Shown piece after piece: positions 2,184-48,601 of a stretch of 64,000 nt of DNA. The stretch is taken from assembly GCA_964016885.1 (NCBI GenBank), contig OZ024761.1, positions 29,140,001 to 29,204,000 on the forward strand, written 5' to 3'. Each line of letters opens with the position of its first letter. Within the stretch, counting starts at the first letter, position 1. The notes beneath the pieces were generated by a model. That model had not been told where the DNA came from. It was given only the letters and a program-made list of their open reading frames with translations, and ran no database searches. The position numbers were made by a program, and so were the translations under genes. The DNA comes from Eledone cirrhosa. Lineage: Eukaryota.

Positions 2184-2292
2184 AAAAGAGTCAGGACCCC
2201 AACAGCTGAGCTCCAACCGTTTCAACTGCTAGATCCGAACTAAGCCACCAGTATTAGAACAGCAGGAATCTAGCTGAACTTAGCAAGGGGTA
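2181..2292 (-). mobile_element. HHR-family A repeat, non-palindromic copy retaining a decayed full hammerhead layout
   Basis: Minus strand reads acccc TTGCTAA gttcagctagat...atctagcagtt GAAAC ggttggagctcagct GTT ggggtcctgactcttttcct. Confidence 0.55.
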
Positions 2293-2432
2293 CAGTCCAT
2301 ATATGGGCATGCAGTCAAAACAAAATGAGCAGAAATATCAAAGCAAAAATTCCTAAAAATTTGTTGTTTTTCTTGTCTGTCACGGGGAGTGGTCAATGAT
2401 CTGGGATATTGTGTGTGTATATATATATATAT

Positions 2433-3069: not shown

Positions 3070-3570
3070 TTTTCTGGCTGACCAGCAAGTTGTTTGGCCA
3101 GCCGGCTGGATGACAACCTTTGTAATTAGCTAGCTGGCTGGCTGGACATATTGACTGGATGGTTGGCTGGTTATGTGGCTGGCTGACAATGTGGTTGACC
3201 AGCTGTTGGGCGAAGTGGTTAGCTATCTACATGGTCAGCTAGCTGACCAGGTTGTTGGCTAGCTGTAGGACAAGACACTTTACTGGCTGGCTGACTGGAG
3301 AGCTGGCTGATTCTGTGGCCAGCTGACTGACCAGATAGTTGGCCAGCTGTAGGCCATGGTAGTTATCTGGTTGGCTGGCTAGATGATTGACCAGGTGATT
3401 GGCAAGCTGTAGGACAATGTAGTTGGCTAGTTGGCTGGCCAGGTGTGTGGCTCGCTTATTGACCAGAAAGCTGTTTGGCTAGCAGGCTGGCTTGTTGTGC
3501 AGCTATATAGTTGGCCAGCTAGCTGACTGGCAAGCTGGCTGACCGGGTAGATGGCTGGTCAGCTACCCTC
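3070..3570. repeat. Decayed (GGCT/GCTA)n-like low-complexity tract
   Basis: Recurrent gctggctg, ggccagct and tagttgg words. Confidence 0.6.
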
Positions 3571-6976: not shown

Positions 6977-7177
6977 AGGAAAGAGTCAGGACCCCAACAG
7001 CTGAGCTCCGGCCATTTTGACAGCTGCTAGATCCAAACTGTTCTGATCTAGCTGTCGAAATGGCCGGAGCTCAGCTGTCGGGGTCCTGACTCTTCTCCTA
7101 TTACCCACTCTACTACCCTAAGTATTGAGTACTCTGGTGCGTTATGGTTCACCTGGTATCTTACCACACCCACTCTG

Positions 7178-7180
<3 letters not shown>
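6977..7180 (+). mobile_element. HHR-family A fold-back repeat in (TA)n
   Basis: Palindrome 6977-7100 followed by the shared tail ttacccactctactaccctaagtattgagtac...ttaccac; (TA)n on both sides. Confidence 0.75.
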
Positions 7181-7229
<49 letters not shown>

Positions 7230-7380
7230 ATATATGAAGGAGTCAGTACTCTAACAGTTGAGCTCTTGCTGTTTTAATAGCTAGTTCCAGCTTACTACCC
7301 CAAGTATTGGGTGCTCTGGTGAGCAATGGTCTAACCAGTTTTTTATTGTATCCATTTTGATCTATATATTATATCCACAG

Positions 7381-9380: not shown

Positions 9381-9543
9381 ATAACAAAGAGGGTGTGGTA
9401 AGAAACCAGGTGAACCATAACGCACCATAGTACTCAATACATTGGGTAGTAGAGTGGGTAATAGGAAAAGAGTCACGACCCCGATGGCTGAGCTTGATCC
9501 GAATGGCCGGAGCCTAGCTGTTGGGGTCCTGACACTTTTCCCA
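9381..9543 (-). mobile_element. HHR-family A repeat with internal deletion of the hairpin centre
   Basis: Reverse complement of the shared tail plus a shortened palindrome. Confidence 0.7.
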
Positions 9544-18887: not shown

Positions 18888-19002
18888 ATATATATATATC
18901 ACATCATCATCATCATCATCACCGTTTAATGCCCATTTTTCCACACTATATATATGCAGAGAGAGAGAGTGGGACTTCATATATACATATATATATATAT
19001 AT

Positions 19003-19200
19003 ATAGGAACGAGTAGGACCTCGACGGCTGAGCTCAAGCCGTTTCGACGGCTAATTCTGGCTAGTCCAGAATTAGCCGTCGAAACGGCTTGAGCTCAGCC
19101 GTCGGGGTCCTACTCCTTCCTATTACCCACTCTACTACCCTAAGTATTGAGTACTTTGGTGCGTTATGGTCCACCTGGTTCCTTACCACATTCCCATCGT

Positions 19201-19201
<1 letters not shown>
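19003..19201 (+). mobile_element. HHR-family A fold-back repeat in (TA)n
   Basis: Near-perfect palindrome 19003-19123 (loop ctagt) containing GAAAC GGCTtgagctcAGCC GTC ggggtcc, then the shared tail. Confidence 0.8.
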
Positions 19202-19233
<32 letters not shown>

Positions 19234-20166: not shown

Positions 20167-20309
20167 TTTTGTAACAATCAAAAATTAAAGGAATATCACC
20201 CGTCAGGCCTTCTGTTATTATAATCAAACTAATTATATATAGTTGAAAGTGAACAAACAAAATGCAGGAGGCAATTGTACACAGTTATATTAGGTGGAAG
20301 TGGAGGAAG

Positions 20310-20345
20310 TTTCGACGTTTCGGACAGAAGTCCTTCATCAGGAAA
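20310..20345 (-). ncRNA. Minimal type I hammerhead ribozyme (PLE-type)
   Basis: Minus strand reads tttc CTGATGA a GGAC-TTCT-GTCC GAAAC GTC gaaa; stem III is reduced to the ACGT palindrome. Confidence 0.7.
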
Positions 20346-24155: not shown

Positions 24156-24232
24156 ATATAGATATATATATAAAAAAATACTTCAGAAAATACTATATAT
24201 TTTCAAATGTTCAACAGATTGGTACAGCGCTA

Positions 24233-24292
24233 AACAGTCCTGATGAAGGGCAATGACCTAGAAACATGTTGTTGGTTTTCAATGCGACTGTT
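24233..24292 (+). ncRNA. Degenerate hammerhead
   Basis: aacagtc CTGATGA aggg-caatga-ccta GAAAC...gactgtt: perfect 7-bp stem I, but the cleavage triplet reads TGC. Confidence 0.4.
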
Positions 24293-27318: not shown

Positions 27319-27705
27319 TATTTTCCACGCTAGCATGGGTTAGACGGGAATTGTTCCACTTGAGGCAAGATTGGTCGAGTGACCATGTCTTGGTCGTATA
27401 GGACTGTATGATGATGATGATATATATATATATATGCTGCATAGTTTTTGTGCATGCAGTACGGGTACTATTTGTAGAGTTTGTTCAGAGCAGATCCCTT
27501 GGCAAATAATATCTCATAGCTCTTTGAGATACATAATTTACAGCCTGTATGCCTGCCAATGTATGAGCACGCCTACTGGATTATTTTCCATTTGAATTCT
27601 TATATATATATATATATGGTTACAGCCTGTATGCCTGCCTATGTATGAGCACGCCTACTGGATTATTTTCCATTTGAATTCTTATATATATATATATATA
27701 TATAT

Positions 27706-27752
<47 letters not shown>

Positions 27753-28032
27753 AATTCAAATGGAAAATAATCCAGTAGGCGTGCTCATACATTGGCGGGC
27801 ATACAGGCTGTAACCTATGTATCTCAGAGAGCTATGAGATATTATTTGCCAAGGGATCTGCTCTGAACAAACTCTACAAATAGTACCCGTACTGCATGCA
27901 CAAAAACTATGCAGCATATATATATATATATCATCATCATCATACAGTCCTATATGACCAAGACATGGTCACTCGACCAATCTTGCCTCAAGTGGAACAA
28001 TTCCCGTCTAACCCATGCTAGCGTGGAAAATA
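27319..28032. repeat. Long inverted duplication (~280-bp arms) around a (TA)n centre
   Basis: 27319-27601 is nearly the exact reverse complement of 27750-28032; an extra partial copy lies at ~27618-27685. Confidence 0.9.
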
Positions 28033-37629: not shown

Positions 37630-37825
37630 GAAAGATTCAGGACCCCAATGGCTGAGCTTTTACCATTTCAACAGCCAGTTCTGAGTCTGGAACTAGCTGT
37701 TGAAATGGCAAGAGCTCAGCTGTCGGGGTCCTGACTCTTTGATATGACCATACTCTACTACCCCAAGTATCGAATACTCTGGTGAATAATAGTCCAACCA
37801 GTTTCTTACTGTATCCATCTTGATG
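37630..37825 (+). mobile_element. HHR-family A fold-back repeat (diverged subfamily; another relic at ~7235-7360)
   Basis: tcaggaccccaatggctgagc...gagctcagctgtcggggtcctgactc plus a diverged tail. Confidence 0.65.
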
Positions 37826-38760: not shown

Positions 38761-38956
38761 ATAGGAACCAGTAAGACCCCGACGGCTGAGCTCAAGCCAT
38801 TTCGACGGCTAAATATGGACTGATTTAGCCGTCGAAACGGCTTGAGCTCAGCCGTCGGGGTCCTACTCGTTCCTATTACCCACTCTACTACCCTAAGTAT
38901 TGAGTACTTTGGTGCGTTATGGTCCACCTGGTTCCTTACCACATTTCCTTCGTTAT
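38761..38956 (+). mobile_element. HHR-family A fold-back repeat in (TA)n
   Basis: Palindrome ~38761-38876 with a different loop, then the shared tail. Confidence 0.8.
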
Positions 38957-47816: not shown

Positions 47817-48032
47817 ATAGGAAAATGTATGACCCCGAGGGCAGAGCTCAAGCCGTTTCAACGGCTATTTCCTGGACTATTTCAGACTATTTCAGTCCAG
47901 GAATAGCCGTCAAAACGGCTTGGGCTCTGCCATCGGGGTCATACATTTTCCTATTACCCACTCTACTACCCTAAGTATTGAGTACTCTGGTGCGTTATGG
48001 TCCATCTGGTTCCTTACCACAACTCCTTCGCT
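47817..48032 (+). mobile_element. HHR-family A fold-back repeat in (TA)n
   Basis: Arms taggaaaatgtatgacccc / ggggtcatacattttccta co-vary relative to the other copies; shared tail present. Confidence 0.8.
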
Positions 48033-48106
48033 ACATATATATATATATATATATATATACAGTGACGAAACATAAGTCAATTGCATGAACTCATAATCCT
48101 TTATTT

Positions 48107-48162
48107 ACTGCTATATATATTTCGATGATAGCCATTGAATGGCTATGACCTCATCAGGCAGT
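48107..48162 (-). ncRNA. Type I hammerhead ribozyme (PLE-type), core intact
   Basis: Minus strand reads actgc CTGATGA GGTCATAGCCAT-TCA-ATGGCTATCATC GAAA TATAT ATA gcagt: 5-bp stem I, long stem II, palindromic stem III, AUA cleavage triplet. Confidence 0.8.
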
Positions 48163-48601
48163 TAGTCAGTTCTTAGATATGCCAGCTCTGTGTGTAGAGT
48201 GTTGATGGTATCAGAGCATTGGGACATATGTATATATATATATTTAAATATATATACATGAAGATTGCATGTGATAAGAATGGCCTTTTGAATCTCAAAT
48301 ACAGTTCAATTTTGCCAGCTCAGGAGACATGAGCAGCATGAAATAAAGTGTCTTGCTCAAGGACACAACACACTGTTAGGAATTAATCTCTCAATCATAC
48401 TTTTGAATGCCCAAGGACTCTGACCATTAAGCCAGATATCTTAAAGTGTGCATGTGTATGCATGTTTATGTAAGTGTTTATGAAGCTATATGTGTGGGTG
48501 TGTGTGTATGTGTGTATGTGTGTGTGTGTGCATGTGTAGGAATGTATATTACTCTGATGTTAATCTTGTGAGTTTTCTTCTCAATTAGATTCCTCTCTCT
48601 T

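Follow-up and report, generated by a model that had tools for sequence, protein, structure and literature searches.

The hairpin repeats of about 200 bases that recur in this DNA do not form a family of their own: they are insertions of an autonomous 3.54-kb Penelope-like element (PLE), the class with the strongest 5' truncation. We consider it quite probable that they are 5'-truncated head-to-head insertions, produced by reverse transcription of element RNA from both nicked strands of a (TA)n target. On balance, we also favor a wider reading, in which the insertions, tens of thousands in number, form a nucleotide-resolution record of the RNA 5' ends used by a PLE reverse transcriptase in the germ line, transcription starts in loop II of the ribozyme, PLE hammerheads (the U3-A8 type and the minimal type of a second family) cleave in vivo, the cut RNA is reverse transcribed, and PLE inversions come from double priming and not from self-priming.

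The window, a stretch of 64,000 nucleotides from Eledone cirrhosa, lies at 29,140,001 to 29,204,000 of its contig (OZ024761.1) within a 3.0-Gb genome. All six copies reported in the first-pass annotation (6977, 9381, 19003, 37630, 38761, and 47817) were present at those positions, and a decayed seventh copy and a read-through copy that it had missed were found as well. Positions in the parent element are numbered from an A in loop II of its hammerhead (+1). The features are as follows.

2188 to 2293, minus strand: read-through tail-less copy of older subfamily B with a whole hammerhead, newly found
6977 to 7179, plus strand: short palindromic copy, subfamily B
About 7232 to 7360, plus strand: seventh copy, decayed, newly found
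9383 to 9542 (noted as 9381), minus strand: short copy, subfamily B
18987 to 19002, no strand: left (TA)n target of copy 19003
19003 to 19060, minus strand: inverted tail-less arm of copy 19003, parent +8 to +65 (blastn against a natural full-length copy)
19061: head-to-head junction of copy 19003, one untemplated base (varies between copies)
19062 to 19123, plus strand: tail-bearing arm of copy 19003, parent +4 to +65
19081 to 19084, plus strand: GAAA in this tail-bearing arm
After 19103, plus strand: predicted GUC cut in copy 19003
19104 to 19108, plus strand: 3' strand of stem I in copy 19003
19124 to 19201, plus strand: one-sided tail of copy 19003, 78 nt, parent +66 to +143, between the RT start sites
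19202 to 19227, no strand: right (TA)n target of copy 19003
37630 to 37824, plus strand: older short palindromic copy
38761 to 38954, plus strand: short palindromic copy with arms of two subfamilies, which differ at two subfamily-diagnostic positions
47817 to 48032, plus strand: short palindromic copy with a templated duplication at its center

The tail-bearing arm at 19062 to 19123 runs in order through an initiator-like motif, the 3' strand of stem II, GAAA, stem III, GUC, and the 3' strand of stem I, and the earlier reading of GAAA, stem III, GUC, and GGGGU was correct at 19081 to 19108. In tandem copies of the parent, the tail runs on into the 5' untranslated region and the ORF. The tail-less arm of the minus-strand copy noted at 9381 is the longer one and extends further upstream than the tail-bearing arm. 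The copies had been placed nearly all inside (TA)n, which was seen on both sides in five of the six, but the copy at 37630 has no TA on its left. The hammerhead core at 2188 to 2293 has decayed by one base, and that element ends at about 2180 in (TA)n. Adjoining the copy at 47817, the end of another PLE family (48032 to 48259, minus strand) carries a minimal canonical hammerhead with a TATATA stem III and lies in (TA)n; its relative supplies the chimeric arms in L035, L048, and L052 described below. A motif scan gave two more minimal hammerhead-like remnants, at about 20300 to 20345 (minus) and 24232 to 24285 (plus), and positions 27408 to 27940 hold an inverted pair of GIY-YIG-end fragments of another PLE, with 27 to 32% identity to the parent ORF by tblastn.

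A DNA search with the repeat gave 1971 candidates, 40 of which were scored. Genome-wide, 12,151 short palindromes fit one exact center-spanning pattern, compared with 0 for the reversed control, and the abundance of the hairpin repeat is far beyond chance. Arms and tail were near-identical across the 30 best-scoring copies, while the palindrome center was variable, with 33 distinct centers in 39 copies of an unbiased set. Because the center differs from copy to copy, the palindrome is remade at each insertion and not copied as a unit, which counts against the earlier suggestion that the hairpin itself is the mobile unit. The proposed covariation of the two arms within a copy was largely borne out: in 26 of 32 copies, no difference between the arms was seen at 10 diagnostic positions (5000 shuffles gave a mean of 9.5 and a maximum of 20), although the copy at 38761 mixes two subfamilies.

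A parent with an RT/GIY-YIG ORF, as the first-pass annotation had predicted, was found. It was traced from the longest centers by exact matching with a 24-mer that reaches 9 nt upstream of the arm. This read-through 24-mer had 3306 exact matches, many of them as inverted pairs 0.2 to 5.5 kb apart, and tandem units of the parent were spaced at 3542 to 3543 bp. The ORF of 717 amino acids contains RT motifs (DIES and YRDD) and C-terminal GIY-YIG motifs (NVIY..YIG), together with Hydra-type marks: RWR at 37, DKT at 117, CNCPDRSIC at 572 (CxCX5C linker), CNLC at 670 (CxxC), and CKH at 698 (CxH); no CCHH was seen in it by eye. Searches of Pfam, NCBIfam, and PDB with the ORF gave no relevant match, and its ESM Atlas neighbors at 0.96 to 0.99 were eukaryotic clusters, with RVT_1, GIY-YIG, and HTH_animal in some members. 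Judged from its motifs and its (TA)n target, the parent is a PLE with the marks of the Hydra clade. It has the architecture of EN+ PLEs, namely, tandem or partial-tandem pLTRs, an inverted 5'-truncated copy, and a one-sided tail. This young family includes copies with an open ORF and offers very many junctions with its target; one subfamily alone gave 21,770 exact tail/(TA)n junctions.

Some loci of the parent had features of their own. At L091-L092, 3.54-kb units that are 100% identical and have open ORFs stand in tandem; since the array exceeds the unit length, it calls for template jumps or for an RNA that is circular or multimeric. The junction of one tandem array, made up of four to five identical units, holds about 90 repeats of a 55-bp ORF piece (L092:6770-9900 and L093:1-2742, C1 about 91.489 to 91.493 Mb), as if produced by repeated template jumping. 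In the youngest subfamily (L091:4023-4229, minus strand), the frame stays open through the tail, for 69 codons ahead of the ATG, whereas other subfamilies have a stop in that stretch.

The earlier identification of the arm as the 3' half of a PLE pseudo-LTR hammerhead of type I holds, and the read-through copies complete this motif. They read ACCCC (the stem I partner), directly followed by UUGANAA, a long stem-loop II of 55 to 57 nt, GAAA, a stem III of 5 to 6 bp, GUC, and GGGGU. The core foreseen for the parent, CUGANGA, was present only in a minority of older copies, and the dominant core was UUGANAA (U3-A8). Among 59 rows, in which some loci were counted twice, 54 were U3-A8, four were C3-A8 (one of them a junction artifact), and one was other. 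Subfamily B had 218 read-through matches, and the 100 rows listed, scored by eye, comprised 87 U3-A8, seven U3-G8, and six canonical C3-G8 cores, of which L246 was inspected individually. When CTGANGA was looked for no more than 36 nt from the arm, 42 matches came up; of these, 30 were inspected and proved to be junction words, mutated arms, chimeras, or unrelated. The real stem-loop II is longer than this spacing allowed. The unconstrained minimum free energy fold of a natural parent copy had type I topology, a three-way junction, the core boxes, and an NUH site, and it was no more stable than shuffles (z, -0.64). Rfam made no hammerhead call in the window or in the parent copy and returned miRNA-like hairpin noise below gathering scores. 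Two stem II pairs change together between subfamilies A and B, one event each, and stem III is predicted to be long enough for a monomer fold. As claimed, the short copies do not carry the 5' half of the hammerhead core, and thus they cannot self-cleave alone. A sub-lineage with a mismatched C3-A8 core (L117 and L155; three read-through copies) suggests that cleavage is not required for spread.

The ends of the insertions were sampled on contig C1, the source of all arm and end samples, by taking the first tail ends listed there (30 loci and 60 regions), which gave 95 distinct ends. An inverted arm was present in 64 of the 95; it stopped at +65 in 58 of these 64 and passed into TA in 62. The 3' ends are fixed at two positions, +65 and +143, each next to UA in the RNA, and the one-sided tail is the RNA between them. 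The 5' ends of the two arms were independent, and the junctions between them were newly formed: the tail-less arm reached at least 4 nt further upstream in 16 of 63 pairs and was at least 4 nt shorter in 13, and the arms shared no sequence at all in 7 pairs. Some kilobase-sized pairs had a much longer tail-less arm (L098, 3.3 versus 1.1 kb; L103, 2.7 versus 0.3 kb; and L100), while L104 and L105 showed the reverse asymmetry. Three loci (L035, L048, and L052), which came from a pattern favoring chimeras and so give no frequency, had a head-to-head join between the PLE and the end of another hammerhead PLE family. Only five of the 95 tail arms were read-through. One insertion (L186) was made up of three segments, all starting at +6 to +8, one of which ran 960 nt into the ORF.

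The 5' ends were concentrated in loop II. In the contig C1 sample, 103 of 158 ends fell at +1 to +12, with a mode at +5, compared with one at -12 to -1 and one at -60 to -13; the 3' strand of stem II (about +12 to +22) was not where the ends piled up. Position +5 is the A of a motif that fits the initiator (Inr) consensus. A TATA-like box 29 nt upstream of +5 was found in subfamily A only and was absent in subfamily B. In subfamily A, the inner stem II hairpin also has its apex at +1; in subfamily B, loop II differs and its apex lies near -8, but the initiator-like motif is the same. Among the subfamily B ends (40 of the first 50 of 950 palindromes, scored by the most upstream match to 24 parent copies), 52 of 80 were at +4 to +6 and five lay upstream of +1, with a minority (-7/-8) at the apex of B. 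The main wall of 5' ends therefore follows the motif and not the apex, and the minority may follow the apex. From the positions of these DNA ends, we infer that the RNA starts at the initiator-like motif inside loop II. An extra-G cap signature before +5 was sought in 20 ends, and none was clear. A splice acceptor or trans-splicing was rejected as the cause of the wall, as the ends scatter over +1 to +12 and join no common upstream sequence.

A smaller class of ends coincided with the ribozyme cut site. A pattern for palindromes with arms starting at about +36 to +51 had 318 matches, and the first 41 listed were examined. Twenty of these junctions contained untemplated bases, giving unambiguous ends, and 27 of their 40 ends were at +46, the base after GUC, with one at +45 and none at +44. 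Six further junctions were blunt at +46 but ambiguous, and eight turned in the palindromic loop III. In the unbiased sample, five of the 33 ends between +13 and +65 were at +46/47 (P = 0.008). CpG decay was rejected as the cause of this class, with C45-G46 intact in 52 of 53 long arms, and so was RT stalling at stem III, given the near absence of ends at +45 and +44. In the second family, with its minimal canonical hammerhead, a cut-site pattern had 28 matches, and in 9 of 27 loci, as judged by eye, an arm stopped precisely at the predicted cut; an earlier variant of the pattern with low specificity was at chance level (113 matches versus 177 for the control). The +46 class is likely the footprint of in vivo hammerhead cleavage, as read from DNA ends, and its simplest reading is that cleaved RNA was the template.

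We propose that both nicked strands of the (TA)n target would prime reverse transcription on the element RNA at once, one at +65 and the other at +143, and that both cDNAs would run off the 5' end of the RNA and be joined by microhomology or a few added bases. The usual 5' end would be the transcription start at the initiator-like motif (+5/+6) within loop II, which precedes the RT start sites at +65 and +143 by only 60 and 138 nt, and in a minor class it would be the hammerhead cut (+46). Priming on the 5' copy of the start sites, at these distances from the RNA start, would yield the 200-bp product in about 95% of insertions. If true, a new mRNA that starts inside loop II cannot cut itself, while read-through RNA can. 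Since the arms of a copy are mostly of the same haplotype, both should come mostly from one RNA or one source, and double priming requires either that a single RNA be copied two times or that two RNAs share a source. Hairpin effects may also shape some ends, such as +1 at the inner apex in subfamily A and the minority of B ends at the -7/-8 apex. Deletions of palindrome centers after insertion could blur or mimic some asymmetric pairs.

The first-pass annotation had instead proposed that cDNA synthesis stalls in stem II, snaps back, and primes itself. In this account, which we regard as unlikely, a single cDNA folds in stem II and copies itself, and later deletions at the center diversify the junction. 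It explains more simply than double priming why 26 of 32 copies have arms of the same haplotype, and it fits the coincidence of +1 with the inner stem II apex in subfamily A and the 21 of 41 cut-site-region junctions that were blunt or microhomologous. However, the fold-back junction expected at the apex had 4 matches, against 12,151 short palindromes. The 5' ends lie past the 3' strand of stem II, in the loop; the two arms vary in length independently, and some pairs do not overlap. The copy of a cDNA cannot exceed that cDNA, and thus the pairs in which the tail-less arm is longer, in some by kilobases, argue against self-priming, as do arm pairs from two families or two subfamilies. Additionally, one untemplated base between two arms that both end at +46 cannot be the loop of a fold-back, and the ends in subfamily B track the motif rather than B's own apex. 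The identification of the ribozyme was therefore right, but the mechanism attached to it was probably wrong.

We give a low probability to SINE-fashion self-propagation of the short copies, in which the right arm would be transcribed from an internal promoter and mobilized in trans, and the palindrome rebuilt. The shortness of about 95% of the tail ends fits this, as do the internal RT start sites, with which no flank is carried along, and the internal promoter in the pLTR of D. virilis Penelope (PMC2377424), which also fits the start site proposed here. One rarer short-copy haplotype was not found among the read-through copies, but the three commonest were, so that no short-only lineage is needed, and cut-site ends need the full upstream ribozyme. 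Such spread is compatible with double priming as an added source. The short, noncoding tandem monomers of non-LTR retrozymes, each with a whole hammerhead (bioRxiv 10.64898/2026.07.22.740005), were rejected as a model; the tandem unit here is 3.54 kb and coding, and the short copies are non-tandem and have no hammerhead core. The first-pass annotation had named a MITE with true terminal inverted repeats as a reading that would refute its own. Such a MITE or foldback DNA transposon, resembling a hammerhead by chance, would account for the long inverted repeat and the TA flanks but is extremely improbable: it is refuted by the continuity with a retroelement parent and its RT/GIY-YIG ORF, and the one-sided tail, the variable center, and a complete hammerhead with compensatory stem II changes also speak against it.

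What PLE hammerheads do and how PLE inverted repeats arise are questions described as open in several reports (PMC8557442, PMC4209133, PMC11167929, and PMC3846280), and the interest of the present data lies in the end statistics, which make both testable. The cut-site ends argue for cleavage in vivo, and the arm statistics separate double priming from self-priming; together they are a direct genomic test. The family also explains why such genomes are littered with half-hammerhead hairpins, which could be mistaken for MITEs or miRNA precursors in repeat annotation. The accessible text of an octopus repeat annotation (PMC13282606) makes no mention of hairpins or of the Hydra clade. In the literature searched, limited to papers open without a subscription, we found neither PLE twin priming or both-strand palindromes of the kind seen here nor reports of PLE insertion ends at a hammerhead cut.

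We regard the element as a new family of Hydra-like PLE whose architecture and U3-A8 core were already published. The Hydra clade is described as having an RWK-type motif, DKT, a CxCX5C linker, CxxC, and CxH, no CCHH, a (TA)n target, a canonical hammerhead, and a length generally below 3 kb (Craig et al. 2021, PMC8557442). The clade shares with our parent the C-terminal GIY-YIG, RWx, DKT, CxCX5C, CxxC, CxH, (TA)n, and the pLTR hammerhead, and Penelope-13_HM is listed with a 5'-truncated inverted copy like that of the parent. The parent unit, at 3.54 kb, is longer than the listed Hydra families (1.1 to 3.0 kb), for which a shorter 3' untranslated region is implied. The Hydra hammerheads listed in File S2 of the same work all have a CUGANGA core and a short stem II, whereas the parent has mostly U3-A8, the long stem-loop II, and the stem III of 5 to 6 bp and matches none of those rows. 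The inverted pLTR and optional tail described for EN+ PLEs (PMC8557442, PMC3846280, and PMC2377424) correspond to the same head-to-head truncated copy, junction palindrome, and one-sided tail, and TATA/Inr-like motifs in the pLTR are common to both, but the tail is 78 nt here versus 30 to 40 nt in the known elements. For PLE inversions, Arkhipova et al. (2013, PMC3846280) hypothesized self-priming on an antisense template, while the arm statistics obtained here favor two primings.

The U3-A8 variant was described in PLE hammerheads of Schistosoma mansoni (Cervera and De la Pena 2014, PMC4209133), which share with the parent type I topology, U3-A8 covariation, opposite-strand pairs, and a palindromic loop III. 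Those motifs are minimal and dimer dependent, whereas stem III of the parent is predicted to suffice for a monomer fold, and in vivo evidence for PLE hammerheads was stated there to be absent. A biochemical parallel to the priming proposed here is PAc (Poseidon of Anolis), for which both strands were nicked and extended in vitro from two internal start sites (Frangieh et al. 2024, PMC11167929). As in the parent, the start sites of PAc delimit the tail, the target is AT rich, and the hammerhead lies upstream of the start sites; unlike in the parent, these sites are inside the ORF. According to the same report, the PAc system did not need cleavage in vitro and none of the RNA-seq reads stopped at the cut, whereas here genomic insertions end there.
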